Shown piece by piece: positions 30,953 to 59,102 of a DNA stretch of 64,000 bases (its first letter is position 1; the number at the start of each line of letters is the position of its first letter). Origin of the DNA: an uncultured Eubacteriales bacterium (GTDB taxonomy: Bacteria; Bacillota; Clostridia; Oscillospirales; Acutalibacteraceae); NCBI GenBank assembly GCA_934636435.1, contig CAKUAQ010000001.1, positions 12,732-76,731 of the forward strand, written 5' to 3'. The position numbers and the translations under genes were made by a program. The notes under the pieces were generated by a model, which was not told where the DNA came from, did no database searches, and was given only the letters and a program-made list of their open reading frames with translations.

Positions 30953-30984
30953 GTCAAGCGGTTTTCGAGAAACCGCTCATGTTT

Positions 30985-31060: not shown

Positions 31061-31065
31061 TACAT

Positions 31066-31141
31066 GGCCCGTTGGTCAAGTGGCCTAAGACTCCGGCCTC
31101 TCACGCCGGCAACAGCGGTTCGAATCCGCTACGGGTCACCA
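31066..31141 (+). tRNA. tRNA-Glu (anticodon CTC), CCA encoded
   Basis: GGCCCGTTGGTCAAG... start typical of Firmicute tRNA-Glu. Anticodon arm CCGGC-CTCTCAC-GCCGG. 3' end ACGGGTCACCA. Confidence 0.9.
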
Positions 31142-31143
31142 CG

Positions 31144-31259
<116 letters not shown>

Positions 31260-31290
31260 CACAAGCCCCTGCAATTGTGGGGGCGCATAT

Positions 31291-31366
31291 TGCTCCTTAG
31301 CTCAGTCGGTAGAGCGCATGACTGTTAATCATGATGTCGTCAGTTCGAGCCTGACAGGAGCAGCCA
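31291..31366 (+). tRNA. tRNA-Asn (anticodon GTT), CCA encoded
   Basis: Acceptor TGCTCCT/AGGAGCA, discriminator G, anticodon arm CATGA-CTGTTAA-TCATG. Confidence 0.9.
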
Positions 31367-38070: not shown

Positions 38071-39039
38071 ATGGATTTGGTAAGTGTTATTGTTCCCGTA
38101 TACAACGTTGAACAGTATATAAAAGTGTGTGTTGAGAGTTTAATCGCGCAAAGCTATCGAAATTTGGACATTATTTTGGTGGATGATGGTTCTACCGATC
38201 AAAGCGGAGAACTGTGCGACGCACTTGCGAGAGAGGACACGCGAATCCGGGTGTTGCACAAAATCAACGGCGGTTTGTCGGATGCAAGAAATTACGGGAT
38301 GGAGTATGCGGCAGGTCAGTATGTCATGTTCGTGGATTCTGACGATGTGGTAGATAAGGAGATTGTTGCACGACTTCATACGCTGATTACCACATACCCG
38401 GATGTTGCACTCGCGGTGTGTGGTTTGTCGCATTTTTACGATGGAGAGGTGCCGGCTTTTTCCTACGACGACGCGATTGCTGTGATGGAGCGCGACGAAG
38501 CTCTTGCGGATTTTTTATATCAAAAGCGGATTCCTACGTCCGCCTGCGGAAAGCTGTATTTTAAAGAATCTTTGGAAGCGGTCCGCTTTGTGAAAGGGCA
38601 GAGATTTGAGGATAACGAGTTCGTTTTTAAGGTTCTGCTGGAGTCCCGCCGGGTGGTTTACAGCGCCTCCGGATTGTATGCGTATCGTCATAGGCACAAC
38701 AGTATAACAACGGCTACCTTTGACGATAAGGAGTTTGACATTATCCGTATCGGGCAGAAGATTATGGAGGAGACTGCAGTTCTGGATGACCGGATAAAGA
38801 TGGCTGCTCTGGCCTATCAGTGTACCAACTGCTTTCGACTATATGTGACCGCTTCTGCAGAGTTTGTCAACAGCGCGGAATTTGCATATTGTAAAGATTT
38901 TTTGAAAAAAAACGCCGGTGAAGCTTCTAGGGATCCGGGTGTCAGAAAGAAAGTAAAGATAGGATTAATGCTATTCCGTGTGAGGACACCGAGAGCGGTT
39001 TTAGAATATATACGCAGTAAAAAAAGTCGGTGGAGTTAG
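38071..39039 (+). CDS. Family-2 glycosyltransferase
   Basis: VSVIVPVYNVEQYIKVCVESLIAQSYRNLDIILVDDGSTDQSG...FVDSDD. Confidence 0.85.
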   Translation: MDLVSVIVPVYNVEQYIKVCVESLIAQSYRNLDIILVDDGSTDQSGELCDALAREDTRIRVLHKINGGLSDARNYGMEYAAGQYVMFVDSDDVVDKEIVARLHTLITTYPDVALAVCGLSHFYDGEVPAFSYDDAIAVMERDEALADFLYQKRIPTSACGKLYFKESLEAVRFVKGQRFEDNEFVFKVLLESRRVVYSASGLYAYRHRHNSITTATFDDKEFDIIRIGQKIMEETAVLDDRIKMAALAYQCTNCFRLYVTASAEFVNSAEFAYCKDFLKKNAGEASRDPGVRKKVKIGLMLFRVRTPRAVLEYIRSKKSRWS

Positions 39040-39042
39040 ACA

Positions 39043-40206
39043 ATGACAGTAATGAAGCGTAATATACGAGTTAATGAATTTTTATTCGGCATTAGCTTTA
39101 TTATACTATTTGTTGCCCTGTTCTTAGAGGATGTCGCGTTTACCGTCGAGGTTTCCACAATTATCAAGCTATTAAAAATGTCCTCCTGGGCAGTGCTGGC
39201 GGTAAGTACGGTATATCGGACGTGGAGGAAAAGCACCTTCAAAGAATTGATGATTGTCTTTTCTACGGGATGTGTGGTGCTGGTTTGCACAGGTGATTTC
39301 TTCCTGGCCATTGTGGTGTTGCTCAGCTACAATTCTATGACGATAGATGATGGGGAGATATTCAGACTTTCGTTTGTGTGCTGTTTGGTGGGTGTCGGCT
39401 TGACACTACTATTGTTTGCAGTCGGGTTGTTGCCGGATGTTCTGTCTTATCGTACGGACTTTAGCGCCGAGGCAAGGCATGCTTTCGGGTTTCAGCACAG
39501 CGCTGTTTTGCCGCTGGGCATTTGTTATATGCTGTGTTACTATATTGGGATGAATGGCACAGGCGGGAAAATTAAGGGCTGGATAGTGGCAATATTCCTG
39601 CTCCTCGGTGTGGTTACCTACAAATACTGTAAAAGTCGGAATGCTCTTGTGGGAATCTTAGCTCTCTCGCTGTTCTCACTGACCATGCAAAGCACGTTTT
39701 TTCGACAGATAATGAATCGGCCGGTTCAGTTTGTTTCGAAATGGATCACCTTGTTTTGTATGATTCTGGCTATTTTGCCGGCTTTTTTGAGGTCAAAGGG
39801 TGTGCTGTTGCCTTTGTGGAACGTATACGATTCGATTTTTACAAATCGTTCGCTGCTCGGAGCATCTGCGATAGACAGCTATGGTATACACTTGATCAAT
39901 CGCATGACATATTCCGCTTATGCAGGTTTTGAGGTCAATGTGAATTCGTATGTGTACCAGGGGATTGTTCTGGACAGCGCTTATATGTATATGCTGGTTC
40001 GCTATGGGGTCCTCATACTGTTGTTTTTTTACATCGTTCTGACATCCTTTTGCAGGAGAGAAAAAAACAATACCTCTCTGTGTGCCGTCTTTTGTATCAT
40101 TGTATTATTGAACATGACCGATAACGATATGCTCAGCTATGGCTGTTTGCCGTTCCTTTTAATTGGAATTAAGAATATTTGGAATAAACAACTGGATAGA
40201 GGGTGA
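39043..40206 (+). CDS. wzy: Polytopic membrane protein, probable polysaccharide polymerase (Wzy-like)
   Basis: About 10 predicted hydrophobic segments, very AT-rich, located in a Wzx/Wzy-type locus. Function comes from context only. Confidence 0.5.
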   Translation: MTVMKRNIRVNEFLFGISFIILFVALFLEDVAFTVEVSTIIKLLKMSSWAVLAVSTVYRTWRKSTFKELMIVFSTGCVVLVCTGDFFLAIVVLLSYNSMTIDDGEIFRLSFVCCLVGVGLTLLLFAVGLLPDVLSYRTDFSAEARHAFGFQHSAVLPLGICYMLCYYIGMNGTGGKIKGWIVAIFLLLGVVTYKYCKSRNALVGILALSLFSLTMQSTFFRQIMNRPVQFVSKWITLFCMILAILPAFLRSKGVLLPLWNVYDSIFTNRSLLGASAIDSYGIHLINRMTYSAYAGFEVNVNSYVYQGIVLDSAYMYMLVRYGVLILLFFYIVLTSFCRREKNNTSLCAVFCIIVLLNMTDNDMLSYGCLPFLLIGIKNIWNKQLDRG

Positions 40207-40210
40207 TTTG

Positions 40211-41137
40211 ATGGAGTTGATCACTGTTTTGCTTAGTGCCTATAACGAGCCGATTTCCATGATTCAAAAGAGCGTGGAATCGGTTATCAACCAAACCCAC
40301 ACAAATCTTGAAATTATCCTCATAAATGATAATCCATATAACAGAGAACTGGACGAGACGCTGCAAAGATACCGGGATTCCGACACAAGAATTCAATACA
40401 GGAAGCATGATGAAAACAAAGGTTTGGTATATTCCCTCAATGAGGGAATTAAAATTGCCAGTGGTGAATATGTGGCGCGGATGGATGCAGATGATATTTC
40501 TTACCCTGACAGACTGGAAAAACAGTTGGCGTTTATGCAGACCGGCGATTATGATATGGTGGGTACCAGCGTCGTCAAGATCAACGAAAAAGGGGAAGAA
40601 ATAGGAGAACTGAAGGTGCCGGCTGATTTTGAAAGTATTATAAAGTATCAAAAATACGGCAGTTGCGTCTTGCATCCGACCTGGTTGGTGAAGAAGGCAG
40701 TATATGATGCGTTGCATGGATATCGAGCCATTTATGCATGTGAGGATTATGATTTCATCCTCAGAGCGATTGCTCAAGGCTACAAGATTGGCAATTTGTC
40801 CGAGGCAAAGCTGTATTACCGTATCCGGACGAGTGGTATTTCCATGTCGGCCAATGTCAAGCAAAAGTTAACGATGTATTTTTTGGCAGAAGGCGCTGTA
40901 CAGGGTCGAACGGTCCCGCTTGAGGAAATCAACCACTATTTAGAATCTGAGGTCTACAAGAAAGACTTTTCCAACCTGCAACGATATGAGGACACAAAAT
41001 GCGCTATGTTAAAAAGCCGTTCCTGTGTGGTGAAAATCCGATGTCTGTTGCGTATGTTGCGGAATCGCTTTTTTTATAAGAATATTGTGGAGCACAGTAA
41101 AATGCATGAGAGGCAACGGCGCGCCCGATCTACCTGA
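40211..41137 (+). CDS. Family-2 glycosyltransferase
   Basis: ITVLLSAYNEPISMIQKSVESVINQTHTNLEIILINDNP...ARMDADDIS. ATG 40211 follows GAGGGTG. Confidence 0.85.
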   Translation: MELITVLLSAYNEPISMIQKSVESVINQTHTNLEIILINDNPYNRELDETLQRYRDSDTRIQYRKHDENKGLVYSLNEGIKIASGEYVARMDADDISYPDRLEKQLAFMQTGDYDMVGTSVVKINEKGEEIGELKVPADFESIIKYQKYGSCVLHPTWLVKKAVYDALHGYRAIYACEDYDFILRAIAQGYKIGNLSEAKLYYRIRTSGISMSANVKQKLTMYFLAEGAVQGRTVPLEEINHYLESEVYKKDFSNLQRYEDTKCAMLKSRSCVVKIRCLLRMLRNRFFYKNIVEHSKMHERQRRARST

Positions 41138-41197
41138 CCCGGTCTGTGTTGATGGGTCATTTTCCGAGATAACTATAGAGAATTGGAGATTCGAAAG

Positions 41198-42259
41198 ATG
41201 CAACATCAAGTCGTAATTCCGACCGGATACATGGGTTCCGGCTCATCCGCAATCACCGATCTTTTGAGCGAAGTGGATGGATATTCCTGTGCGAACGGAA
41301 ACTTTGAATATGTGTTTATGCACTGTCCGGATGGGGTTTTCGATCTGGAGGATAAGTTACTGCTTGGCAATACCGCTGTTCGAAGCGATGAGGCACTGCA
41401 CTCTTTCTATCAGTGTATGAAGAATTTATATAAAAACCGGCGTTATTGGGTGGCGGATTATGCCCATAAGATCGCACCGGAGTTTTTGGATTGGTGCACG
41501 GAATTTGTAAATTCTCTGATTAGCGAAAAAATTACGGCATCCTACTGGTATTATCAGGAAAATCCGAATTTCAGGATCTATCTGAAGAAAGCAATCGCAA
41601 AGGCGCTGAAAATGGTCAGTTTTCAAAAAATACAGATGAAACCGGGCATTCGATATAACGAGATGTGGATTTCCTATGCCACAAAGGAGGAGTTCTACAG
41701 CGCCGCAAAAATTCTCATAGAAAGATTTTTCACAAAAATGGGAGCGCGGGAGACGGCTGTTATTTTAGATCAATTCCTGTTGCCGCATAACCTGTTCAGA
41801 ATGCAGAGCTATTTTGAGGATAATTGCAAGGCCCTTGTGGTTGAACGGGATCCTCGGGATGTGTTTTTGTTGAACAAATACTACTGGAGTAAGGCCAACT
41901 GTCCCGTTCCTTACTCCTTTAATGTGGCAGAGTTTTGCAAAAATTACAGAAAAATGCGGTTGGCGGAGAAGTCCTGTGACAACAAGAACGTGATGCGCCT
42001 TCACTTTGAAGATTTGATTTATCGATATGATACCGAAGTGTGTGCGGTTTTTGAATTTCTGGGTATCCGAGAGGAAGCGCACACCCGCAAAAAGACAAAG
42101 TTGATTCCGGAAAAATCCCGTATCAACACCCAATTGTTCCGAAAAAAGGAGGAGTATATAGAGGAGGCAAGGTATATAGAGGATCAGTTGAAGGAATATC
42201 TGTATGATTTCCCCTACACAGAAAATGAACAGATCACAGAGAAAAATCTGATATTGTAG
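41198..42259 (+). CDS. Sulfotransferase-fold protein
   Basis: P-loop-like PTGYMGSGSSAITDLL (5'-PSB-like), VVERDPRDVFL (3'-PB-like RDPxD) and LHFEDLIYRYDTEVCAVFEFLGI (the YEDL...FLG tail common in sulfotransferases). Confidence 0.5.
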   Translation: MQHQVVIPTGYMGSGSSAITDLLSEVDGYSCANGNFEYVFMHCPDGVFDLEDKLLLGNTAVRSDEALHSFYQCMKNLYKNRRYWVADYAHKIAPEFLDWCTEFVNSLISEKITASYWYYQENPNFRIYLKKAIAKALKMVSFQKIQMKPGIRYNEMWISYATKEEFYSAAKILIERFFTKMGARETAVILDQFLLPHNLFRMQSYFEDNCKALVVERDPRDVFLLNKYYWSKANCPVPYSFNVAEFCKNYRKMRLAEKSCDNKNVMRLHFEDLIYRYDTEVCAVFEFLGIREEAHTRKKTKLIPEKSRINTQLFRKKEEYIEEARYIEDQLKEYLYDFPYTENEQITEKNLIL

Positions 42260-42379
42260 GGATGCAGCGGGTTATACTTCTTTATGCTGGCATACTAGCG
42301 AAAAGATGCCGTCTGCTATGGCATCGGTCGACACGTGCCGTACCGTTTGAAGATTCTGGGATAAAGGAACGTATTGGAA

Positions 42380-43687
42380 ATGGCCAATTGTATACATTGG
42401 ATAAAGGAAAAAATTTCGAAAAGTAGTCTCATAAAGAACTTTTTGCTGATTTTTTCCGGAGAAGGTATCAGCTCCGTTTTCGGATTTCTGGCGACTATTT
42501 TTATTGTCAATGCTATCGGTTCATACAAGCACGGCATTCTGGTGGCCGTGCAGACTTACACGAATTTATTTTACGGATTATTTTCATTCAAGACATTTCA
42601 GTCGCTGATCAAGTTTTTGGCAAAATCGGAAAAAGAGCAGGACCTCGAAATGTCCAAGCTCTATGTGAAGTGGGCGGTCATCTTGGACGGCGTTTGTCTG
42701 GTAGCCACGTTGCTTTTCGGTGTTGTTTTGAAAAGCTTTGTGATTCGCATTATGGGATGGGATGTAGAAATATCCCGATATTGCGTACTCTATCTGTGCG
42801 TCTATATGCTGTATTTCCAGGGCACATCCATCGGCGTATTGCGGTATTATGAGAGATATTCGTGTGTGGTGATTTCAAATGTCACGAGTGCGGTGATCCG
42901 CTGTGTCGGTTTTCTCGTTTGCTTTATCATGAAATGCGATTTCATTTCTTTCTTCTTGGTAGATTGTTTTGCTAACGTAGTTAAGTTCCTCTTGATGGAC
43001 TTTTATACGATTCAGACACTGATTCGGCAAAAACTGATCCGTTTTTACAAGGTGAAGCTATCCTGGTGTTCGGACTTTCTGAAGTTCAGTTTTTACAGCA
43101 ATTTAACATCTACGATCGATCTGCCGGTGAACCAGGTTACATCGCTGATTATCAATAAGTATTTGGGCTTTGAAGCGACCTCCGTATACAGTGTGTTCGG
43201 AAACATCGGATCGGTGATCAATAAATTGGGCGACCCAATCAGTCAGGTGATTTATCCGGAAATGAACAAAATGATTACGCAGGATAATGTAGAAGGCGCC
43301 AAAAAGCTGTCCGTCAAACTGAAGATGATTATGCTGATGTTGTTTGGTGCGGGTGCCGTTTTCGTGGCTACGACGCACAGCTTCTGGCTCAAGCTGCTGA
43401 TTACCAACCCCGCCCCGTATGTGATTCCGCTGATTTTGTATATCGGGTATTGCTGTTATGCCAATTCGGCCATGGGGACGCATAATTTATTTATGGCGTT
43501 GGGTTATGTAAAATACAACATTCCCATACTGCTGGCAGTTAATATGGTGTATTTGGTGATGTTGTTGTTTGCTGTGCAAGGGTATGGACTGACGGGTGTG
43601 ATCTGCACCTATATTTTCCAAGCGTTTGTAGTGGTGCTTATCAAAGAGATCATTATGCGCAGTCATAAGTATAAGGAGTTGATGTGA
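42380..43687 (+). CDS. wzx: Oligosaccharide flippase (Wzx / MOP superfamily)
   Basis: About 12 TM segments. N-terminus SSLIKNFLLIFSGEGISSVFGFLATIFIVNAIG is typical of polysaccharide-biosynthesis flippases. Confidence 0.7.
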   Translation: MANCIHWIKEKISKSSLIKNFLLIFSGEGISSVFGFLATIFIVNAIGSYKHGILVAVQTYTNLFYGLFSFKTFQSLIKFLAKSEKEQDLEMSKLYVKWAVILDGVCLVATLLFGVVLKSFVIRIMGWDVEISRYCVLYLCVYMLYFQGTSIGVLRYYERYSCVVISNVTSAVIRCVGFLVCFIMKCDFISFFLVDCFANVVKFLLMDFYTIQTLIRQKLIRFYKVKLSWCSDFLKFSFYSNLTSTIDLPVNQVTSLIINKYLGFEATSVYSVFGNIGSVINKLGDPISQVIYPEMNKMITQDNVEGAKKLSVKLKMIMLMLFGAGAVFVATTHSFWLKLLITNPAPYVIPLILYIGYCCYANSAMGTHNLFMALGYVKYNIPILLAVNMVYLVMLLFAVQGYGLTGVICTYIFQAFVVVLIKEIIMRSHKYKELM

Positions 43688-44790
43688 TGCAACACAGGAA
43701 GAGTGTTTTATTTATAATTTGGTCCTTGAGTTATGGCGGCGGTGCGGAAAAAATATTGGCCAATATCGTCAATCACATGGATTATGAAAAATATGACATT
43801 GAAGTTCTGGAATACCTGCATTCCGATAAAATGGAAACAGTCGACCCCCATGTAAAAATCCTCCCTCCGATCGTAGACATCACGAAAAAAAGTCTGTTTC
43901 GCAAAGCGTTGAATGCGTTTATCAACCGATTTTTGATAAAGGTATGGCCTGTTCTTGTCAGAAAAGTGTGTCTTAACCGGGCATACGATGTGGAGATATC
44001 TTTCAATTATTTGATTCCGACCTTTTTGCTGAACCGTTCGAGTAAAAAACGAATATCATGGATCCATAGCTCTGTTTATGATCTTGAGAAAAAAAAGCGC
44101 CAAAAAAAGCTGCAGGCAAAGGCATTCAAAAATGTCGATACAATTGTAGCCATATCGGAGACCACGAGGGAATCGCTGATCACGGAATTCCCGGAGTGTG
44201 CAGAAAAGCTCTTGACCATCTATAACGGGTACGAATTTCAAAAGATGGTCCCCGACGGGGATGTTGTCGATTTTGATCTGCTGTACTGTAACCGATTTGA
44301 TGAAAACAAGAATCCCGTGCGATTTGTTCAGCTGTTTGGGAAACTGCGGGATGCCGGGCTGTCTGTGACGGGAAAAATGCTGGGCACGGGAACACAGTAC
44401 GCGGAAGTGGTGCGATTGATCAAAGAGCTCGGATTGGATGATTGTCTTGAATGCGTCGGGTACAAAAAGAACCCGTATGCTTATTTTTCACACTGCAAGG
44501 TGTTCTGCCTGACTACGCATATAGAAGGATTCCCCACAACGTTAGTTGAGTCAATGTACTTTGGTAAGCCGTTTGTGTCGACACCGGTTGCCGGGACAAA
44601 AGAACTGGCACAGAATGGGAAATGCGGTATCGTGGCAACGGATGATGAAGAGTACATTGACGGATTGGTCCTGCTGATGACTGATGTTCAAGCGTATGAA
44701 AGCATGAGCCGTTCATGCCGGAAAGCGGTGGAGAAGTATTCAATTGAAAGCCAGATAAGCGCCCTTGAATCTTGCTTAGAAACTCCGTAA
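43687..44790 (+). CDS. GT4 (GT1-fold) glycosyltransferase
   Basis: VLFIIWSLSYGGGAEKILANIVN...EGFPTTLVESMYFGKPFVSTPVAGTKE (E-x7-E). Confidence 0.8.
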   Translation: MQHRKSVLFIIWSLSYGGGAEKILANIVNHMDYEKYDIEVLEYLHSDKMETVDPHVKILPPIVDITKKSLFRKALNAFINRFLIKVWPVLVRKVCLNRAYDVEISFNYLIPTFLLNRSSKKRISWIHSSVYDLEKKKRQKKLQAKAFKNVDTIVAISETTRESLITEFPECAEKLLTIYNGYEFQKMVPDGDVVDFDLLYCNRFDENKNPVRFVQLFGKLRDAGLSVTGKMLGTGTQYAEVVRLIKELGLDDCLECVGYKKNPYAYFSHCKVFCLTTHIEGFPTTLVESMYFGKPFVSTPVAGTKELAQNGKCGIVATDDEEYIDGLVLLMTDVQAYESMSRSCRKAVEKYSIESQISALESCLETP

Positions 44791-44973
44791 TAGGACGGAT
44801 GTTTCGATGCGGTTTTTGACGGTTGTGAAAGCTTTTCTCCGGATGAGAAAAAGGGTACGAAATCGGTTTTTGCCGCATGACCGGAATTCGCACTTTAACG
44901 ACAAAAATATACCGCCATGCCGGCGTTCCATTGTCTCCTTGCACAATTGTTGGTATGAGGATTGACAAAGCTA

Positions 44974-45002
44974 TTGACGGCAGGCGACTTTTGTGGTACA
45001 CT
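44974..45002 (+). promoter_or_regulatory. Candidate promoter of the choline module
   Basis: TTGACG, 17 nt, TACACT. Overlapped by the palindrome TTGTGGTACACTGTTCACAA (44991-45010). Confidence 0.45.
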
Positions 45003-45030
45003 GTTCACAAAAACTGGCAGGAGGAAAATC

Positions 45031-46821
45031 ATGAACGCGCAAGAATGCGATGTGCTGAACGCTATTTTTCGCGATTCCTTTGTCAATCAGAGGATCCTTT
45101 CGGAAGAGTCCGGCCATTCTCTGGGAGTTGTCAATCGCTCGCTGAAGCAGTTGATGCAGGAGGGCTATATAGATGAATTGTATCGCCCGACGGAACAAGC
45201 TGTGACGGAGTATGCACAGAAAATGCCCCAAAGAGCCGTCATTTTAGCGGCCGGATTTGGTATGCGGATGGTTCCGATCAATACAGAAGTGCCGAAGGGT
45301 CTTCTGGAGGTCAACGGGGAGCCGTTAATTGAACGGCTGATCAAGCAGTTGCACGAGGTTGGAATTCGGGAAATTTATGTTGTTGTGGGATTCCTGAAGG
45401 AAAAATTCGAGTATCTGATTGACGATTACGGGGTTGAGCTGATTGTAAATCCCGCGTATGCCTCCAAAAACAACCTGCATTCCCTACAGTTGGCGAAGGA
45501 ACATCTGGAAAACTGTTATGTCATACCATGCGACATCTGGTGTGATGTAAACCCGTTTCATGAGCACGAAATGTATTCCTGGTATATGGTCAGTGATCTG
45601 GTGGATGACGATAGCGATGTGCGGGTCAACCGCAAAATGGAGCTTGTTACGGTGCCAAAGCAAAGCGCCGGAAACGCCATGATCGGTATCTGCTATCTGG
45701 CCAAGGAGGATGCTGTGGCCGTCAAACAACGGATCGAGGAGCTTTGCCGAAGCAGGCGGTACGATGATTCGTTCTGGGAAGAGGCCCTCTACGAGCAGGA
45801 CAGGATGACGGTGCAGGCCCGTGTTGTGCATTCGACCGATTGTGTGGAAATTAACACCTACGAGCAGCTCCGGGAATTGGATAGTCAATCCAACCAGCTT
45901 AAGACGGATGCCATACAGGTGATCTGTAAGGCGCTGTCCGCACGGCCGGAGGATATAACCAATATTGCTGTTCTGAAAAAAGGAATGACCAATCGCTCGT
46001 TTCTGTTTACCTGTAACGGGAGACGGTACATCATGCGAATTCCCGGCGAGGGGACCGACCGCCTGATCAACCGTCGGCAGGAGGCGGATGTATACCGCGT
46101 CATACAGGACAAACACATTTGTGACGATATTGTATATATCGACCCGGAGAACGGATATAAGATCACAGAGTATCTGGAAGGCGCCCGCGTATGCGATTCG
46201 TCGGATCCCGAGGATATAAAGAAATGTATGCGGCGTCTGCGGGAATTCCACGGGCTTAAACTGAAGGTCGACCACGGGTTCGACATTTTTGGACAGCTGG
46301 AATTTTACGAAGACTTGTGGGGGGGGACGCCCTCCGTGTACAAGGACTATGCGCGCACGAAAAGAAATGTGTTGGCACTAAAGCCGTATATTGATGCACA
46401 TGCAGGGGAAAAGGTGCTGACCCATATTGACGCCGTGCCGGATAATTTCCTGTTTGTCGAGAGAGACGGTGCCGAAGATATCCGCCTGATTGACTGGGAA
46501 TATGCGGGAATGCAGGATCCGCACGTGGATGTGGCAATGTTCTGCATCTACGCATTGTACAATAAGCGGCAGGTGGATCAGCTGATCGCGGCCTATTTTA
46601 CCGAGGGCTGTGACGCGGTTACCAGAACGAAAATCTATTGCTACATTGCGGTATGCGGTCTGCTGTGGAGCAACTGGTGTGAGTATAAGCGGAATCTCGG
46701 CGTGGACTTCGGCGAGTATTCTCTGTGTCAATATCGGTATGCGAAGGACTATTACCGCATTGTACAGGACGAACTGAAAAAGCAGACAGAAAGCGGGGAC
46801 GGCGTGTATGTACAAGGTTGA
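45031..46821 (+). CDS. Tripartite fusion: winged-helix domain + LicC-like nucleotidyltransferase + LicA-like choline kinase
   Basis: RBS AGGAGG. aa 1-50 NQRILSEESGHSLGVVNRSLKQLMQEGYI (wHTH-like), then AVILAAGFGMRMVPINTEVPKGLLEVNG (NTP-transferase), then C-terminal LTHIDAVPDNFLF and LIDWEYAGMQDPHVDVA (choline-kinase Brenner and ChoK motifs). Confidence 0.8.
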   Translation: MNAQECDVLNAIFRDSFVNQRILSEESGHSLGVVNRSLKQLMQEGYIDELYRPTEQAVTEYAQKMPQRAVILAAGFGMRMVPINTEVPKGLLEVNGEPLIERLIKQLHEVGIREIYVVVGFLKEKFEYLIDDYGVELIVNPAYASKNNLHSLQLAKEHLENCYVIPCDIWCDVNPFHEHEMYSWYMVSDLVDDDSDVRVNRKMELVTVPKQSAGNAMIGICYLAKEDAVAVKQRIEELCRSRRYDDSFWEEALYEQDRMTVQARVVHSTDCVEINTYEQLRELDSQSNQLKTDAIQVICKALSARPEDITNIAVLKKGMTNRSFLFTCNGRRYIMRIPGEGTDRLINRRQEADVYRVIQDKHICDDIVYIDPENGYKITEYLEGARVCDSSDPEDIKKCMRRLREFHGLKLKVDHGFDIFGQLEFYEDLWGGTPSVYKDYARTKRNVLALKPYIDAHAGEKVLTHIDAVPDNFLFVERDGAEDIRLIDWEYAGMQDPHVDVAMFCIYALYNKRQVDQLIAAYFTEGCDAVTRTKIYCYIAVCGLLWSNWCEYKRNLGVDFGEYSLCQYRYAKDYYRIVQDELKKQTESGDGVYVQG

Positions 46822-47527
46822 GAGAGCAATCATTATGGCGGCCGGACTGGGGAACCGGATGCATCCGGTGACGCGCTCGGTTCCCAAGCCGCTGGTGCAG
46901 GTAAACGGAGTGCGTATGATCGACACGGTGATCAACGGACTGCACAAGAACGGAATCCACAAGATATATGTTGTGATAGGATACCTGAAGGAGCAGTTTC
47001 GGGGATTGGAAACGGAATACCCGGGTGTACGGCTGATCGAAAATCCGTATTACGATACCTGTAACAATATTTCCTCTCTTTATGTGGCGAGGGAGCATAT
47101 TGAAAATGCGATCATTCTGGATGGCGACCAGATTATTTATAATCCTGCGGTGCTGTCGTCCGGATTCGACCGTTCCGGATACAACAGCGTGTGGACGGAT
47201 AGCGAAACGGATGAATGGCTGCAAACGGTGGAGAATGGGATCGTAACCGCATGCAGCCGAACCGGAGGTAAAGGCGGATGGCAGCTGTACAGCATTTCTC
47301 GCTGGACGGCAGAGGACGGGAAGCGGCTCAAACGCCATTTGGAGATTGAATTTGAGCAGAAGCAGAACCGGCAGATATACTGGGACGATGTCGCGATGTT
47401 TTGCTATCCGCAGGAATATCAGCTGGGAATTTATCCGATGAAGGCGGGCGACGTGATCGAAGTGGATAATCTGAGCGAACTGATCGCTCTGGATGCCAGT
47501 TACCGGATTTATGAGGAGGATACTTGA
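46808..47527 (+). CDS. licC: CTP:phosphocholine cytidylyltransferase (LicC-like)
   Basis: AIIMAAGLGNRMHPVTRSVPKPLVQVNG...VIGYLKEQF...YWDDV...IEVDNLSEL parallels pneumococcal LicC blocks as I recall them. Overlaps the upstream gene by 14 nt. Confidence 0.75.
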   Translation: MYKVERAIIMAAGLGNRMHPVTRSVPKPLVQVNGVRMIDTVINGLHKNGIHKIYVVIGYLKEQFRGLETEYPGVRLIENPYYDTCNNISSLYVAREHIENAIILDGDQIIYNPAVLSSGFDRSGYNSVWTDSETDEWLQTVENGIVTACSRTGGKGGWQLYSISRWTAEDGKRLKRHLEIEFEQKQNRQIYWDDVAMFCYPQEYQLGIYPMKAGDVIEVDNLSELIALDASYRIYEEDT

Positions 47528-47528
47528 A

Positions 47529-49082
47529 ATGAAAATCAAAAGTGAGCGCGGCAGAATTGACTGGATGATCACATTGGTGCCGCTGGCAATTGTGGTCGCA
47601 TTGTGCATTCTTTTCTTCTTTATGCCGGAGCAATCAAATGCGGTGTTAAGTCAGGTTCGGTTTTTCTTCGGTGATACCTTCGGCACCTATTATCTGGTAA
47701 TCGGGCTGGGAATTTTTATTCTGTCCCTGTACATTGCTGGTTCAAAGTATGGCAATATCGTTCTCGGAAAACCCGATGAAAAGCCAAAGTATTCTTTCTT
47801 CGCATGGGGCTCTATGATGTTTACTTGCGGGCTTGCCGCGGATATCCTGTTCTATTCATTTTCGGAATGGGTGATGTATGCGACGGATCCCCACCTGGAG
47901 GAAATGGGTAGCATTCAGGACTGGGCGGGGGTTTATCCTTTGTTCCATTGGAGCTTTATACCGTGGGGATTTTATCTGGTGTTGGCGGTCGCATTCGGTT
48001 TCATGCTGCATGTGCGCAAAAGGAACCGTCAGAAATATTCGGAAGCCTGTCGTCCGCTTTTGGGAAAGCACACGGATGGATGGCTCGGACGGATCATCGA
48101 CCTTCTGGCGGTATTTGCGCTCCTCGCAGGTACGGCAACGACCTTCAGCGTGGCGACTCCCCTGATGGCGGCTATCATCGGCGAGCTGTTTCATGTGACA
48201 ATCAGCCGCACGGTGATTAATATTATCATTTTGCTGATTACCTGCGCGGTGTACACGTATTCTTTGCTGCACGGCTTCAAGGGTATCAGCAAGCTGGCAA
48301 ACATCTGCATTTATATGTTCTTCGGACTGATTGCATACGTCCTGCTCTTTGGCGGAGAAATGCGGTATATCATTGAGACCGGCCTTGCTTCGTTTGGCCG
48401 CATGGTGCAGGATTTTATCGGATTGTCCACCTTTACCGATCCGTTGAGAACTTCCAGTTTCCCGCAAACCTGGACGATTTATTATTGGGCCTACTGGATG
48501 GTGTGGTGTGTTGCCGCCCCATTCTTTATCGGCAGCATCTCCCGGGGACGTACGGTGCGCCAGACGATCCTCGGCGGATATATGTTTGGGATCGGTTCAA
48601 CGCTGGCCAGCTTTGTGGTGTTGGGCAACTACTCCATGGGTATGCAGACCGCCGGAAAAGCTGATTTTATCGCCCAGTATCAGGAAACCGGCGATCTGTA
48701 CTCCATGATCGTCGGCATCATCAAAACGATGCCCTGTGCTCCGGTGATCATGGTTGTCGTGCTGCTGACTATGATCGCGTTTTACGCCACATCCTTCGAT
48801 TCGATCGCGCTGACGGCCTCTTGTTACAGCTATCATAAGCTGAAGGATGGGGAACAGCCCAATAAGGCTATCCAGCTGATGTGGTGCATACTGCTGATCC
48901 TGCTGCCGATCGCATTGCTGTTTGCGGAAAGCTCAATGACCAATCTGCAATCGGTCAGCATCGTGGCGGCGTTTCCAATCGGTATCGTCATCGTCATGAT
49001 TGCTGTGAGCTTTTTGAAGGATGCAAACAAGTATATAAAGAATCCGACGGATGCCATTGAGGAAGAAACAAAAACGGAATAA
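47529..49082 (+). CDS. BCCT-family (betaine/carnitine/choline) transporter
   Basis: WTIYYWAYWMVWCVAAPFFIGSISRGRTVRQ is the BCCT signature region, with about 12 TM segments. ATG lies 2 nt after the licC stop. Confidence 0.85.
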   Translation: MKIKSERGRIDWMITLVPLAIVVALCILFFFMPEQSNAVLSQVRFFFGDTFGTYYLVIGLGIFILSLYIAGSKYGNIVLGKPDEKPKYSFFAWGSMMFTCGLAADILFYSFSEWVMYATDPHLEEMGSIQDWAGVYPLFHWSFIPWGFYLVLAVAFGFMLHVRKRNRQKYSEACRPLLGKHTDGWLGRIIDLLAVFALLAGTATTFSVATPLMAAIIGELFHVTISRTVINIIILLITCAVYTYSLLHGFKGISKLANICIYMFFGLIAYVLLFGGEMRYIIETGLASFGRMVQDFIGLSTFTDPLRTSSFPQTWTIYYWAYWMVWCVAAPFFIGSISRGRTVRQTILGGYMFGIGSTLASFVVLGNYSMGMQTAGKADFIAQYQETGDLYSMIVGIIKTMPCAPVIMVVVLLTMIAFYATSFDSIALTASCYSYHKLKDGEQPNKAIQLMWCILLILLPIALLFAESSMTNLQSVSIVAAFPIGIVIVMIAVSFLKDANKYIKNPTDAIEEETKTE

Positions 49083-53843: not shown

Positions 53844-54330
53844 TCAAGCAACCGAAAGGGCTTGCTGCCTGTGAATTGCAGGCGGCAAGCCCTTTAGCTT
53901 TGCCTTGATTCTGCGGTTGCTGTAATAATCCGGATATTCGATCAGCTCCTGCTTGAAGTGTTCCATGGATTGAAATTCCTGCAGATACAGCAGTTCACTT
54001 TTGAGCAGCCCGAAGAAGTTTTCCATCATCGCATTGTCCGGACAGCTCCCCTTGCGGCTCACGCTCTGCCGGACACCCTTCTCACGGAGCATCCGGTGGT
54101 ACTGCCAACCTTGATCGGAATGAAAAATACGGTCTGTTCCGTCCGGAATCCTTGCAAACGCCTTCTCCAACATGGTTTCCGCAACCATCTTTTTTGGATT
54201 CCGGCGTATATCGTTTATTCGGTACTCCTCTTGGGCGTAGAAAAACACCCCATTTATTAGTCCGGGTATTTTGCCATACCTGTCTAACCAATGGGGGCTG
54301 TTCATATCGGAGATCGTGCCGTGCCCGTCA
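53844..54330 (-). mobile_element. Truncated IS3-family (IS150-group) transposase OrfB relic
   Basis: IFHSDQGWQY..MLREKGVRQSVSRKGSCPDNAMMENFFGLLKSELLYLQEFQSMEHFKQELIEYPDYYSNRRIKAKLKGLPP is the rve/DDE C-terminal half. The N-terminal half and OrfA are absent, there appears to be a deletion after WQY, and no inverted repeats were seen. Confidence 0.7.
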
Positions 54331-54633
54331 AAACATAGGCCATGCCCGTGCGTATTGGTTTGCATGGCTTTTCCCGGGAGTGGCGGACAAGAAGAGGGAA
54401 AGCACGGCGCCCGCCGGGGCAATGCTTTTTCTTTTTGCTCATGGGGCACCGGGGGGGAATCGTCGGCCGCGGCGGCGGGGACGGCGACGATTCGGAGCGG
54501 CGAACGATTGGCGGTCCGGTGCGTCACCGGTGGCGCGCCACCGCTGCGCTATTGTCGCTCCGCTGACCCGCCGATTTCTGTTTTCCATCTGCTAAAGGCG
54601 ATCGACTAACGACCAACCGCCGACAACTAACGA

Positions 54634-56001
54634 CTACTTTCCTACGCAAAAACGGGCGAACACCTCATCCACCACCGTCTCGGTGGCCCGTTCGCCGGTC
54701 AGCTCCAGAATGGCGGCGATCGCCCCGTGCAGACTCACCGATACCGCGTCCGGAGTCAAGCCGCTGCCGAGAGCGGCATCCGCCTCTTCCAGGCAGATCC
54801 GGCAGCGCACAGCGCAATCCCGCTGGCGCTCGGTGGACAGGACCGGCTCGGCGGCGGTCAGCCGTTCCACTCCGGTGATGTCCGCCACCGCCGCCGCCAA
54901 CTCCGGCAGACCGCTGCCTTCCCGGGCGGACAAGGTCACGACCCGGGAGAATCGGCCCTCCAGAAAGGCCCGGTCGATCCGCTGCGGTCGATCGGCCTTG
55001 TTGATCACGGCGATGGCCGCGGTGCGGCAGCTTTCCTCCGCCAGCGCCCGATCCGCATCGGTCAGCGGCCGGCTGCCGTCAAACACCGCCAGCACCAGTG
55101 CCGCCTGCCGCAGACGGGTGCGCGCTTTTTCCACCCCCGCCGATTCGATCCGGTCGCCGGTATCCCGGATGCCGGCGGTATCCGCCAGCCGCAGGGTGAC
55201 TTCTCCCAGCCGCACGGTGTTTTCGATCACATCCCGGGTGGTTCCGGCCACCTCGGTCACGATGCTCCGCTCGCAGCCGGACAGGGCATTCATCAGCGTG
55301 GACTTGCCCACGTTGGGACATCCCACAATAGCGGTGTCCACCCCCTCCCGCAACACCTGCCCGGCGTCAAAGGTGTCCACAAGCCCCTGTACCGTCTGCT
55401 GCGCCCGGTGGATGACCCGGGCCAGAGCCTCCGGGTGCAGCTCCGGGATATCCTCGTCCGGATAATCCACATAGGCGCTGAACTGGGCTTCCACCGCCAG
55501 CAGCGCCTCCCTGACCTCCTGCAACCGCCGATAGGTGACTCCCTCATGGGCAGCCAGCGCCGTGCGGGCGGCCAGCCGCCCGTCGGCGGCGATCAGCGCC
55601 GTCACGCTCTCCGCCTGGGTCAGATCCATTTTCCCCGCCAGAAATGCCCGCCGGGTGAATTCGCCCGGCTGCGCCATCCGCGCCCCGGCCGCCAGACACG
55701 CCCGCAGCACCCGCCGCAGCAGGTACAGTCCTCCGTGGCAGGACAGCTCCGCCACGTGTTCACCCGTATAGCTGCGGGGGGCGCGAAACACCAGCAGCAC
55801 GCAATCGTCGATATCCCCCTCGGCATCGTATACATGGCCGTATGCGGCGGTATATCCCGCCAGCCGTTCGGCGGAACGGGCCGGGTTTGCCGGGCGGAAC
55901 ACCCGGGCGGCCACCGCCAGCGCTTCCTCCCCGGACAGGCGCACCACCCCCAGACCGGCGGGTGCCGCAGGGGTGGCGATGGCAGCAATGGTATCGGACA
56001 T
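54634..56001 (-). CDS. mnmE: tRNA modification GTPase MnmE
   Basis: DTIAAIATPAAPAGLGVVRLSG, G-domain [14 protein letters not shown]...DTAGIR, C-terminal FCVGK. ATG 56001 follows AAGGAG (the track ORF starts at TTG 56010). Confidence 0.95.
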   Translation of the reverse strand: MSDTIAAIATPAAPAGLGVVRLSGEEALAVAARVFRPANPARSAERLAGYTAAYGHVYDAEGDIDDCVLLVFRAPRSYTGEHVAELSCHGGLYLLRRVLRACLAAGARMAQPGEFTRRAFLAGKMDLTQAESVTALIAADGRLAARTALAAHEGVTYRRLQEVREALLAVEAQFSAYVDYPDEDIPELHPEALARVIHRAQQTVQGLVDTFDAGQVLREGVDTAIVGCPNVGKSTLMNALSGCERSIVTEVAGTTRDVIENTVRLGEVTLRLADTAGIRDTGDRIESAGVEKARTRLRQAALVLAVFDGSRPLTDADRALAEESCRTAAIAVINKADRPQRIDRAFLEGRFSRVVTLSAREGSGLPELAAAVADITGVERLTAAEPVLSTERQRDCAVRCRICLEEADAALGSGLTPDAVSVSLHGAIAAILELTGERATETVVDEVFARFCVGK

Positions 56002-56207
56002 GGCAAACAAACTCCTTTACGGATCAGAATTTTTCGGTATTCCGCGGCAACCGCGGAATTCTGCCCGGCGAAACCGGTCGCCGCACCGACATGGCGGCAA
56101 AGCCCGCCGATACGCCGCCCGACAGGGTCCGGAGCTGCATTCCCGCTCCGTACCCACCGGCGCATCCGGGGGACAATCGCCTGGCGGCCGGCCGGTTCTT
56201 TCCGGTG

Positions 56208-56933
56208 TCAGGCGCGCCACATGGTGCTTTCGCCCGACGTCTCCGGTACCGAGTCCGGGAACAGCATCCGAAACAGCTCCTGCGCAAACAGCTCATGCAG
56301 CTCTGCGCAGGGATGGTTGATGCCGTTCGCCAGCAGCCGGGTGGTATCCTCCGTCCGACTGCGCTGTTTCCACAGGGCATAGCAGTCGCACACGGGGATC
56401 CCATGCTCCCGGGCGGTGCGGCAGGCCGCCAGCATATAGGCATCCATGGTGCCGTCATTCTGCATGGCGGCGGTTTTAGCCGCATAGTCCCGCAGCTCGG
56501 CGGGGGTATCCTCGGTCACGTAGGTGTTCAGCATATTGGGGGTCATAAAAATTGCCGCAACCCCGCGCTGACGGCAGGCATCGAAGATGGCGGCCAGCGC
56601 ATCGGTATATTCCTCAAGGGGGTCGTTGATGTCGTTGAGCCCGAAGCACACGATCACCAGATCGGGATGATGGCTGAACACATCCCGCTCCATCCGCGCC
56701 AGCGACATGGCGGCCGTCACCCCGCCGATGCCGGCATTGATGGCATTCACCGGCACATAATTCCGCAGCGCCGATATTTTGCGCCGCAGCCGGTTCCAGT
56801 ATACCGTCTCGTAGTTGATCTCGTCCAGTCCCACCGCTCCATGGGTCACACTGTCCCCGAACGCCACGATGTTGATGGGGCCGTGCTCCATCAGCTGATC
56901 AAAATTCATGCCCAGCTTTTCCTGTATTGTCAT
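56208..56933 (-). CDS. SGNH/GDSL-family hydrolase
   Basis: Block I IVAFGDSVTHG, block II NAGIGG, block III FGLNDI, block V NGINHP. Confidence 0.8.
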   Translation of the reverse strand: MTIQEKLGMNFDQLMEHGPINIVAFGDSVTHGAVGLDEINYETVYWNRLRRKISALRNYVPVNAINAGIGGVTAAMSLARMERDVFSHHPDLVIVCFGLNDINDPLEEYTDALAAIFDACRQRGVAAIFMTPNMLNTYVTEDTPAELRDYAAKTAAMQNDGTMDAYMLAACRTAREHGIPVCDCYALWKQRSRTEDTTRLLANGINHPCAELHELFAQELFRMLFPDSVPETSGESTMWRA

Positions 56934-56976: not shown

Positions 56977-58227
56977 TCAGACATTCCAGAAGGATCGGAC
57001 AATCCGCTGCAGCTCCGTGTCGTCCATGTCCTGTATATCCTCGACGAGCCGGATGTTCATTTCTCTGGCTCGCTGCCGCAGCACCGCCGCGAAGGGGCTG
57101 TCCTGCTCCAGTGCGGTGGCCACCAACACCTTTTTCGCATACTGCCCGCCGAACCGGTCGGCGACGGTATCCAGCTTATACAGCTCGTCCATGTCCACAT
57201 AGCCGTTCTTGCAGGACACAAACACCGGCACTGCACCGTGCATCAGCAGCACGTCGATCTCATTCATCGTGTCGGCCCGGTCGCTTTCGGTCTGCGCCGC
57301 GCCGTCCCAATCAATGTATACCCCGGTTTTCACATCATTATAGGTATAGGCGCCATCCTTTTCCTGAGCGCGTAGGGCGGCAAGGTACATTTTCAGCTCC
57401 AGCGCCTGCCCGGCCTTGGTCAGGCAGCGCTTCACCTGTTCGTCCTTATACACCACCGACAGGATGGACTCTCCCTCAAAAATGTCGATCAGCCCGCCCT
57501 GATACAGCGCCCTCAGGATCGTGGTGTCGAATATATAGGCGGCACCGATCTGCTGCAGCCGCTCCTTGAGGTATTCCAGCGGCACCTGTAAGGTCAGGCT
57601 GTCGTCCCCCGGCACACGGAATTGCTCGGCCACCATCAGCACGCCCATCTGGGTGTTCCAGCGGCGCACATCCGGTCGGCATACCTCCCACATATAGTCT
57701 ACATCCTCCACGAATGCGTCGGTCAGCTCCCAGTGCAGCGTCGTGCCCGGCTTTTCATCCGCATAGACCACCTCGCCGCCATAGATGCGGACATTCTCCT
57801 CCACCGACAGCTGGGGCATGCTCCCCTCGTAGATGGTTCTCCCGTCCAGGTCGCAGTCGATGATGGTATTGTTGTGCAGATTGAACCGGTGCATTTGCAG
57901 ATGCTTATCCTTATACCGCTCCAGAAGAATGCCGCAGGCGAACAGTAGCATATCCTCCCCGCCCGTCAGGTCAAATACGCAGTCGTCGTAGGTCTCCACC
58001 AGCTCCGACAGCACCCGCAGCACCTCCTGCAGGTCGTTTTTATTCACACAGCGGCAGAGAAACTCCACCTCGCTGCCCTGGTCCAGCAGCACCCGCCGGT
58101 AGAGCGCCCCGCAAGCCTCCAGCCGCTTTTTCTTATCGCCGATCAGGATCACCCGCTGCGGCGGGTGGGTCAGGCTGGTGCAGATGTTTTCGATCCCGGT
58201 TTTGTCAAACAGTTCAATATACGTCAT
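56977..58227 (-). CDS. CARF-domain / Card1-Can2-like (DUF1887) nuclease-fold protein, stand-alone
   Basis: N-terminal Rossmann-like region ending in FDLTGGEDMLLFA (CARF [DN]x[ST]xxx[RK]-type loop, last residue Asp). C-terminal ALELKMYLAALRA...NEIDVLLMHGAVPVFVSCKNG...FGGQYAKKVLVAT follows the DUF1887 PD-(D/E)xK layout, with Ser at the Glu position. Confidence 0.6.
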   Translation of the reverse strand: MTYIELFDKTGIENICTSLTHPPQRVILIGDKKKRLEACGALYRRVLLDQGSEVEFLCRCVNKNDLQEVLRVLSELVETYDDCVFDLTGGEDMLLFACGILLERYKDKHLQMHRFNLHNNTIIDCDLDGRTIYEGSMPQLSVEENVRIYGGEVVYADEKPGTTLHWELTDAFVEDVDYMWEVCRPDVRRWNTQMGVLMVAEQFRVPGDDSLTLQVPLEYLKERLQQIGAAYIFDTTILRALYQGGLIDIFEGESILSVVYKDEQVKRCLTKAGQALELKMYLAALRAQEKDGAYTYNDVKTGVYIDWDGAAQTESDRADTMNEIDVLLMHGAVPVFVSCKNGYVDMDELYKLDTVADRFGGQYAKKVLVATALEQDSPFAAVLRQRAREMNIRLVEDIQDMDDTELQRIVRSFWNV

Positions 58228-58262: not shown

Positions 58263-58292
58263 ATTATAGTACGCCCGGCGACCGGATGTCAA
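58263..58292 (-). promoter_or_regulatory. Near-consensus promoter of the CARF gene
   Basis: Minus strand TTGACA (58292-58287), 18 nt, TATAAT (58268-58263). Confidence 0.65.
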
Positions 58293-58648: not shown

Positions 58649-58677
58649 GTTGACAAATCTGCTTTAGCGCGCTATAC
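58649..58677 (+). promoter_or_regulatory. Promoter of the T-box leader
   Basis: TTGACA, 17 nt, TATACT. Confidence 0.7.
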
Positions 58678-58689
58678 TGTGAAAAAGTA

Positions 58690-58976
58690 AAACCTTTGAC
58701 CGAGAGTAAGTACCCACAGGCAGGGCTGTGTCAAGAGAGTCGCAGGCGGTGAGATTGCGACGACAGCGGCGGTGGCGAATGGGCTCGGGAGGGCAAACCG
58801 AACACCGCAGCGGCGGTCGGTAGGGGCGCCGGGATCTCCACCCGTTATCCAGGGAGCGCGTATCATGAGGTGCGCGAGAGAGTGCGTCGGAGCATACATC
58901 TCCGGCGAAGTCGGGTGGTACCGCAGGTTTGTTTATAACGCCTGTCCCAACAGCAATGTTGAGACAGGCGTTTTTT
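58690..58976 (+). promoter_or_regulatory. T-box riboswitch leader, specifier UGG (Trp) by position
   Basis: Stem I base CCGAG (58700)/CTCGG (58784). S-turn AGTA...GAA. GAA-TGG-G specifier at 58780-58782. AG bulge AGAGAG (58734) and distal loop GGTGAGA (58748). T-box GGGTGGTACCGCAG (58913-58926). Terminator AACGCCTGTC/GACAGGCGTT plus TTTTTT (58937-58976). Confidence 0.85.
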
Positions 58977-59102
58977 GTATGATTTTTGAAGGAGTTGAGA
59001 GCGATGAAAGCACAGAAACCGGGGCGGCGATGGCGTCGCTCCCAGTGGAGATTCCGTCCGCCCATTGATTTACGATCATACGAATGAAAGAGGTAAATAG
59101 TG

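Follow-up and report, generated by a model that had tools for sequence, protein, structure and literature searches.

The 64-kb window analysed here (64,000 nucleotides of contig CAKUAQ010000001.1, from an uncultured Eubacteriales bacterium) carries on its minus strand a gene for a 416-residue protein built of a CARF sensor domain, an insertion (INS) domain and a PD-(D/E)xK nuclease (REase) domain. The gene, which is intact, belongs to a large branch of the Can2/VC1899 family that is CRISPR-unlinked and uncharacterised. The initial annotation of the locus had described an orphan protein of the Card1/Can2 type with substitutions in both signature motifs, and the peptides that it quoted (FDLTGGEDMLLFA, NEIDVLLMHGAVPVFVSCKNGYVDMDELYKL and FGGQYAKKVLVAT) are all present verbatim in the translation. 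The gene and its parts are laid out as follows; conservation counts here and below refer to 262 diverse family members.

56977..58227, minus strand: coding sequence of the 416-residue CARF-INS-REase protein, from the open reading frame (ORF) list; the stop codon occupies 56977-56979.
58263..58292, minus strand: sigma-70-type promoter, TTGACA-18 nt-TATAAT, matching the consensus at 12/12 positions.
57823..58227, minus strand: CARF (Rossmann-like) sensor domain, approximately residues 1-135, from the strands and helices of an AlphaFold2 (AF2) model; residues 2-112 align to the CARF domain of 7BDV.
57952..57972, minus strand: ligand loop D86-L-T-G-G-E-D92, in place of the Can2 motif NxTGGTK and aligned to Can2 N-V-T-G-G-T-K.
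57841..57858, minus strand: D124-x-D126-x-D128-G129 loop at the end of the CARF domain (D124 in 240/262, D126 in 238/262).
57418..57822, minus strand: INS domain, approximately residues 136-270, helical with a small sheet, from the AF2 secondary structure.
56980..57417, minus strand: PD-(D/E)xK nuclease domain, approximately residues 271-416, from PF09002 and profile alignments to 7BDV, 1XMX and 8BAO.
57397..57399, minus strand: E277, the motif-I glutamate of E-ExD-(E/S)CK, assigned by motif order and invariance (262/262).
57253..57264, minus strand: N322-E323-I-D325, which supplies ExD to the active site and aligns with SthCan2 NELD; N322, E323 and D325 are invariant (262/262).
57208..57216, minus strand: S338-C339-K340, the (E/S)CK part of the active site, read as TCC TGC AAG on the reverse complement; invariant (262/262).
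57175..57186, minus strand: E348-L-Y-K351, the first helix turn after the SCK strand (E348 in 261/262, K351 in 258/262).

Family models, alignments and structure comparison all assigned the protein to the DUF1887/Can2/Card1/VC1899 family, in which a CARF domain is joined to a PD-(D/E)xK nuclease, as had been proposed from the letters alone. Three PADLOC models of CARF4--CARF_PDDEXK matched over the full length (E=1e-28 to 1e-23), thus recognising the CARF-INS-PD-(D/E)xK architecture, and Pfam PF09002 matched residues 290-397 with 27.0 bits against a cut-off of 26.4; NCBIfam held no model for the 416-residue protein. An AF2 model built from 49 orthologues (pLDDT 92.4, pTM 0.90) displayed a Rossmann-like CARF domain with strands at residues 2-6, 25-30, 55-60, 83-86 and 111-116 alternating with helices. 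Compared by Foldseek with solved structures, this model aligned from end to end with each of the three relatives against which the initial annotation had proposed to check it, namely Can2 (7BDV, E=7e-21), VC1899 (1XMX, E=2e-20, TM 0.73-0.79) and Card1 (E=1.6e-16). Cdn1, Can1 and a second Can2 were also matched in full length, with TM scores of 0.64-0.79 overall, and the CARF domains of Csm6 and Csa3 in part; the modelled fold is thus that of the CARF superfamily. An equivalent INS domain is found in Can2 (PMC10783487, PMC7969007). No full-length analogue was present among the predicted viral structures of BFVD. Homologues numbered 1176 hits at 90% clustering and 1974 among 50%-identity representatives, 666 of the latter below 1e-30, and a scan of species-representative genomes returned at least 258 carriers, nearly all of them gut or rumen Clostridia.

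The nuclease domain holds every residue of E-ExD-(E/S)CK, the consensus for most Can2 orthologues (Jungfer et al., PMC10783487), each invariant across the family; the positions identical in all 262 members are G89, G90, E277, N322, E323, D325, S338, C339, K340, G342 and G360. When the protein was aligned with solved homologues, V-S-C-K fell on I/V-E-C-K and NEID on NE(L/I)D in the pairwise alignment and in three independent profile alignments, which confirms the serine at the position of the ExK glutamate. E277 is assigned, by sequence, as the counterpart of TbrCan2 Glu304, mutation of which abolishes DNase activity (Jungfer et al., PMC10783487), and the NELD motif of SthCan2 provides the active-site residues Glu276 and Asp278 of that enzyme (Zhu et al., PMC7969007). 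The initial annotation had taken S-C-K as a possible sign of a non-catalytic or altered effector; a non-catalytic protein was not supported. TbrCan2, which is active and cA4 (cyclic tetra-adenylate)-dependent, has Ser356 as the counterpart of CARD1 Glu308 and SthCan2 Glu291, and this serine, part of the E-ExD-SxTTS-K arrangement of clade 1 enzymes, aids Mn2+ coordination via water (Jungfer et al., PMC10783487). Since SCK is a published variant within the Can2 consensus, TbrCan2 itself has Ser, and the other catalytic residues (E277, E323, D325 and K340) are invariant, the nuclease is probably active. A migrated glutamate of the Cfr10I type, with E348 replacing the lost Glu, was also considered. 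The E348 position is Thr in Can2 and VC1899, and the 13 residues from S338 to K351 equal the S356-to-K369 spacing of TbrCan2; with Ser established in the literature as a normal variant, this proposal became needless.

The sensor pocket departs from Can2. Of the general CARF loop [DN]x[ST]xxx[RK] the first three features are present, and the basic residue is replaced by Asp92. NxTGGTK, which each of the seven Can2 clades retains and which touches cA4 at its ribose and phosphate (PMC10783487), reads D-L-T-G-G-E-D here and D-x-T-G-G-[DE]-[DE] as a family consensus, with acidic residues (D/E) at position 8 in 246/262 members (94%), at position 91 in 227/262 (87%) and at position 92 in 254/262 (97%), and with the two glycines invariant. 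The loop thus ends in Asp rather than Lys or Arg, as first noted, and the conservation across orthologues of S-C-K and of the acidic loop end, on which the earlier reading had been made to depend, speaks against an alignment artefact or a decaying copy. Four residues that touch cA4, Ser19, Thr42, Lys99 and Tyr118, are conserved between Can1 and Can2 (PMC7969007), and in an ungapped, motif-anchored alignment all four are replaced (S19>D8, T42>D31, K99>D92 and Y118>R114), the D31 position being Asp in 134/262. Because four cA4 contacts are replaced and NxTGGTK has given way to DxTGG[DE][DE], the activating ligand is probably other than cyclic tetra-adenylate, in support of the earlier suggestion that the protein may sense a different ligand. 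The conserved residues of the pocket are T88, the GG pair, H113, R114 and N116, and this high conservation argues that the pocket is probably functional. CARF domains devoid of K/R after strand 4 probably bind other ligands (Makarova et al. 2014), and for RtcR, binding of tRNA fragments by the CARF domain has been demonstrated.

In the loop that closes the CARF domain, alignment A1 has G129 invariant and D128 conserved to at least 90%, and the DxDxDG loop is followed by T-I-x-E family-wide. DxDxDG is a calcium- or metal-binding motif, and the D124-G129 loop, which resembles it, is a putative metal site. TerD, VWA and RyR domains, which occur in family neighbourhoods, are also metal- or nucleotide-linked.

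Repeat, Rfam and PADLOC scans agreed with the earlier observation that the 64 kb contain no CRISPR array, cas gene, cyclase or ring nuclease. No array was detected in the window, where Tandem Repeats Finder returned short two-copy repeats only and a repeat-spacer scan was negative; Rfam recognised four tRNAs and one 5S rRNA and nothing else; and none of the 48 other window proteins matched a Cas, Cas10, CD-NTase or ring-nuclease model in PADLOC at E<=1e-5, their matches being of generic GTPase, ATPase and kinase type. By Pfam, the window proteins included sugar-nucleotide and glycosyltransferase genes, a hydrogenase, transporters and MnmE. Six-frame translation of the window searched with hidden Markov models (HMMs) built from related loci yielded neither TIR nor RyR. 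The family at large gave the same picture, with an array within 10 kb of the gene in 0/88 related loci, so that the type III CRISPR-Cas linkage characteristic of Can2 and Card1 was found neither in the window nor, as regards arrays, in these loci. An apparent array in locus L088 proved to consist of 69-nt coding leucine-rich repeats. PADLOC recognised no cyclase among the conserved partners of the family, nor among the best 25 families for 150 variable neighbours. The adjacent mCpol gene that marks Panoptes was likewise missing: a scan for GGDD/GGDEF motifs, as a sign of mCpol or Cas10 nearby, retrieved nothing beyond the TGG[DE][DE] loop of the family itself, HAD hydrolases and OmpR-type response regulators, the small GGDD proteins that had looked like cyclase candidates being among the latter two. 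Another candidate cyclase, a downstream partner of ~600 residues, is a membrane protein with TrkA_N-like and RyR-like domains.

All ORFs from 89 loci were clustered, RyR and TIR domains were counted over 84 independent loci, and the share of loci with at least one recurrent partner was taken from the 51 loci with 4 kb on both sides of the gene. The surroundings proved highly variable, with 53 different neighbour families upstream and 44 downstream over the 84 loci. Recurrent, tightly spaced partners on the same strand were nevertheless present in 33/51 loci; the remaining 18, the window included, had none. The partners, all on the CARF strand, are the following.

29/88 loci, same strand: protein of ~1160 residues with a double AAA domain and an M41 peptidase domain.
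30 loci, same strand: membrane protein of ~600-860 residues with TrkA_N-like plus RyR-like or RyR domains.
30 loci, same strand: RyR-domain protein of 93 residues.
20 loci, same strand: tandem YbjN-like pair, directly upstream of the CARF gene.
Same strand: ClpP with a TraG/VirD4-like ATPase.
Same strand: giant transglutaminase-domain protein of 1733 residues.
Same strand: ADP-ribosylglycohydrolase.

RyR ORFs (PF02026; HMMs from the loci) occurred in 31/84 loci (37%), 30 of them on the CARF strand, and TIR domains (HMMs from the loci) in 11/84 (13%); the TIR architectures varied, and two lay immediately downstream of the CARF gene. Among the variable neighbours were TIR domains, NLR-type TPRs, DpdF, defence reverse transcriptases, PsyrT, capH and SIR2. 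TerD, VWA and a kinase lay near the CARF gene in locus L002. The nearest relatives of the window protein (59-62% identity) sit in three kinds of cluster: with the AAA-M41 protein and the YbjN pair, beside an FtsK/SpoIIIE ATPase (FtsK_SpoIIIE in L090), and, in L091, within an FHA-EssC / WXG100 / kinase / TIR-Sel1 / FHA / TIR-kinase cluster. Embedding among T7SS-like, Ter, kinase and VWA genes is thus a property of the family that the stand-alone window copy does not share. In line with these contexts, VC1899-family genes are known to sit in such conflict clusters (Makarova et al. 2014), and related arrangements have been described for CARF-D-ExK nucleases (Bell et al. 2024); double-AAA FtsH proteins are themselves known conflict-system components.

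Several arrangements within these loci stood out in their own right. Five minimal pairs, in which the CARF nuclease gene adjoins or overlaps a gene for a RyR protein of ~93-126 residues and the rest of the operon is missing, were found as minimal CARF+RyR modules:

L050, 3083-4726
L054, 3845-5400
L063, 10001-11562
L064, 1980-3592
L087, 129-1758

One family member, P0131 (833 residues), is fused at its C-terminus to TPR_10/12 repeats, which are homologous to the repeats of TIR-TPR proteins whose genes, in other loci, come immediately after the CARF gene in the downstream direction (L026 4689-7295; L015 11382-15803). A conserved, tightly spaced operon (L012 5493-13541; L084 1832-17424) encodes ClpP, a 529-residue protein, a TraG/VirD4-like ATPase, a PcfJ-like protein, proteins of 284 and 83 residues, two YbjN-like proteins, the CARF nuclease, the AAA-AAA-M41 protein and the TrkA_N/RyR protein. 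PADLOC had no matching model for the non-AAA partners in this operon, no description of the core YbjN x2, CARF, TrkA_N-RyR, AAA-AAA-M41 and RyR was found in the literature searched, and the L012/L084 operon may represent an undescribed conflict system. Two other candidates were set aside: a second 416-residue ORF in L005, at first sight a paralogue, is unrelated, and an 827-residue 'fusion' in L073 is a read-through into the gene for a CCA-adding enzyme, probably through an assembly or stop-codon artefact.

In the window itself, the promoter of the CARF gene was located where the initial annotation had seen it (58292-58263 as read on the minus strand), and a purine-rich ribosome-binding site lies between it and the ATG that starts the 416-residue ORF, directly 5' of this codon. 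The GC content at third codon positions (GC3) is 0.80, like that of host genes and window neighbours, and the gene is therefore not a recent arrival. Comparison with the orthologue in the sister genome L009 gave a dN/dS of 0.16. With this value, the perfect promoter and the host-like GC3, the window gene is an intact, stand-alone copy kept by purifying selection and is taken to be functional. The next gene lies close by:

56208..56933, minus strand: GDSL/SGNH hydrolase gene (Pfam Lipase_GDSL), 43 bp 3' of the CARF gene.

No terminator was predicted between the two genes, which are possibly co-transcribed; the GDSL gene is part of the local arrangement, not of the CARF-nuclease family. Gene order runs from the CARF gene through the GDSL hydrolase gene and mnmE to a transposase remnant, and the CARF-GDSL-mnmE block is common only to L009 (92% nucleotide identity), the mnmE adjacency being found also in the near-identical contig L001. 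mnmE occupies 54634-56010 (minus strand) in the window and 5976-7352 in L009. It is adjoined by a 227-residue ORF at 53844-54527 (minus strand) of lower GC3 (0.63), whose equivalent in L001 carries rve integrase/transposase domains, and this insertion-sequence remnant forms the edge of the block shared with L009. PADLOC reported 'mad3' matches of ~1e-26 for the window set as well as for the neighbour set; the mnmE and GDSL orthologues are all that these sets have in common, and the match is probably the MnmE GTPase fitting a generic model, not a MADS defence gene.

Set beside known systems, the protein is closest to VC1899 of Vibrio cholerae (1XMX), the founding DUF1887 member, which gave the highest query-normalised full-length match (TMq 0.73, E=2e-20). 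VC1899 has the same CARF-INS-REase layout, is an orphan without type III CRISPR, is not regulated by cA4 and has a pocket of negative and hydrophobic residues, with Asp at the Can2 Ser19 and Thr42 positions (PMC7969007); these residues, D9 and D34, correspond to D8 and D31 here, and IGD aligns with IGD. Both orphan status and the Asp pair are thus shared. The likeness has its limits, since sequence similarity to VC1899 is detectable by profile only (E=0.012) and VC1899 keeps E-C-K and has an Arg (R96) at the loop position that is Asp/Glu in the family. Can2 and Card1 (SthCan2 7BDV, TresuCard1 6XL1, TbrCan2 8Q3Y) share fold, domain order and E-ExD-(E/S)CK, but are encoded in type III loci and carry NxTGGTK, whereas the family has DxTGG[DE][DE] and no nearby array. 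We have filed the protein as VC1899-like, not as Can2, because the NxTGGTK motif and the type III linkage are both missing. CRISPR-unlinked CARF-REase proteins in large conflict operons have precedents in the type VII secretion system (T7SS)-like/Ter clusters of the VC1899 family, as touched on by Makarova (2014, citing Anantharaman 2012), and in the CoCoNuT operons (Bell 2024). Their themes, VWA, kinase, phosphatase, EssC/FtsK-HerA-type ATPases, AAA ATPases, TerD and leucine-rich repeats, recur here; those accounts differ in being comparative-genomic notes on Proteobacteria and other phyla, and the CoCoNuT protein has two CARF domains. Type II Panoptes (mCpol plus CARF-TM), in which cA3 from a minimal polymerase serves a guard logic, and RtcR are experimentally supported CARF systems outside CRISPR. 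They differ from the present family in their effector, a membrane domain or a transcription activator in place of a nuclease, and in that no mCpol or other cyclase was recognised near the family.

Taken together, these results make it reasonably likely that the protein is a functional, CRISPR-independent member of the Can2/Card1/VC1899 family with a probably active nuclease, a sensor for a ligand other than cA4 and a role as a conflict effector. By analogy with solved relatives, it would most likely work as a homodimer, in which a small ligand, on binding between the paired CARF domains, would move the nuclease domains into place for metal-dependent cutting of DNA and/or RNA, the CARF nuclease thereby acting as the effector of an anti-phage or anti-competitor response. 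Several observations weigh against this proposal. The mapping of the cA4 contacts comes from a modest profile alignment (domain E ~0.008), anchored by three exact motifs, and the conserved Arg114 and His113 could still bind phosphates and hence an oligoadenylate. A type III system or other cyclase could lie in the genome beyond the 64-kb window. One of the 150 neighbour proteins (alignment A3, loci L002-L052) matches PADLOC Cas1_IIIb with E=3.3e-28; its source protein was not located by reverse-transcriptase motifs or by a targeted PADLOC scan, and no array lies nearby. Several reverse-transcriptase models also matched strongly in the same neighbour scan, and the match may reflect the reverse-transcriptase part of an RT-Cas1 model. 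The window copy is without any of the usual family partners, and no family match was present in PLSDB plasmids, INPHARED phages or IMG/VR viral contigs; plasmid or phage cargo is therefore not claimed, and the mobility of the family would follow from its variable contexts alone.

Some of these same observations would suit an ordinary Can2, that is, an accessory nuclease activated by cA4 (or cA3/cA6) and serving a type III CRISPR-Cas system elsewhere in the genome, where there is room for one outside the window. The fold and architecture are those of Can2 and Card1, the nuclease motif lies inside the published Can2 consensus, T88-G89-G90 is retained and Arg114 is conserved. We nevertheless consider this unlikely, in view of the 87-97% of members with acidic residues at the T and K positions of the loop, the four replaced cA4 contacts, the 88 loci free of arrays within 10 kb, and the lack of cA4 regulation in VC1899, its best structural match. 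A catalytically dead or non-nuclease protein (a regulator, sponge or ring nuclease) appears very unlikely: the canonical ExK Glu is indeed missing, and VC1899 displayed only weak, unregulated RNase activity in vitro (PMC7969007), but Ser is present in active TbrCan2, SCK is part of the family consensus, the other catalytic residues are invariant in 262/262 members, unlike those of a decayed site, and an acid-lined pocket would make a poor cyclic-oligoadenylate sponge. Also very unlikely is domestication for a housekeeping role tied to mnmE or to tRNA/RNA metabolism in this lineage; the initial annotation had named domestication as one option. The gene adjoins mnmE and the GDSL hydrolase gene in a block kept in L009, its GC3 is host-like and it is under purifying selection, with the tRNA-fragment-sensing CARF of RtcR as a precedent; yet no loci other than the window, L001 and L009 have the gene beside mnmE, mnmE itself is bordered by a transposase remnant, the relatives of 59-62% identity belong to conflict islands, and the neighbour families across the 84 loci are as diverse as described. 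At the level of the family, where partners recur in 33/51 loci, the housekeeping interpretation was thus not upheld.

A more specific version of the conflict-effector proposal holds that the sensor reads an NAD+/ADP-ribose-derived signal, such as a cyclic ADP-ribose (cADPR) isomer made by TIR domains, with the RyR partners as buffers or off-switches. The RyR ORFs in 31/84 loci, 30 of them on the CARF strand, together with the five minimal CARF+RyR pairs, suggest that the family belongs to NAD+/ADP-ribose-type signalling, phage RyR-domain proteins being able to bind or cleave 2'cADPR and 3'cADPR. So do the TIR domains in 11/84 loci (two directly downstream, and also in L091), the SIR2 and ADP-ribosylglycohydrolase neighbours, and the member fused to the TPR type of the TIR-TPR neighbours; acidic side chains would also fit ribose diols better than phosphates. 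We advance this version only tentatively, for it is argued purely from gene association, defence islands of all kinds often contain TIR and RyR genes, most loci including the window are without TIR, the window is also without RyR, RyR domains bind other adenine nucleotides too, and no CARF domain is known to bind ADP-ribose-type ligands. It is conceivable, at similarly low odds, that a CARF nuclease retuned to a TIR-derived ADP-ribose-type signal, with RyR proteins as buffers, is the effector of an undescribed multi-gene conflict system of gut Clostridia, composed of the YbjN pair, the CARF nuclease, the TrkA_N-RyR membrane protein, the double-AAA/M41 protease and the small RyR protein; the window copy of the nuclease would then be one that stands alone.

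CARF nucleases are understood almost wholly as cyclic-oligoadenylate receptors of type III CRISPR systems. The present branch, which comprises at least 666 clusters at the 50% identity level and occurs in no fewer than 258 species-level genomes, chiefly of gut and rumen Clostridia, combines an intact nuclease centre with a sensor pocket that is strongly conserved yet chemically different. Identification of its ligand would widen the repertoire of CARF signals and account for VC1899, long an orphan; it could also establish a new system of defence or competition that is abundant in the gut microbiomes of humans and animals. Were the ligand of the ADP-ribose type, this CARF would be the first with demonstrated recognition of NAD+-derived immune signals, joining Thoeris-type and type III CRISPR-type signalling.

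Elsewhere in the window, some ten plus-strand genes at 38071-49082 have a GC3 of 0.49-0.63 versus 0.72-0.84 in the rest of the window, and the window's Pfam matches include glycosyltransferases, dTDP-rhamnose pathway enzymes and polysaccharide synthesis proteins; on account of the low GC3 and these matches, the stretch probably represents a surface-polysaccharide cluster gained by horizontal transfer. Four tRNA genes and a 5S rRNA gene lie at 30416-31363, within a 1.7-kb stretch free of protein genes. At 58650-59100 (plus strand), a promoter TTGACA-17-TATACT (11/12) precedes an ABC substrate-binding gene by ~420 nt; the long leader gave no Rfam match at the gathering threshold and may be an unrecognised leader or riboswitch. 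Finally, the gene at 124-2331 (plus strand) encodes a 735-residue protein that DUF5696 matches over its full length (E=3.6e-138).

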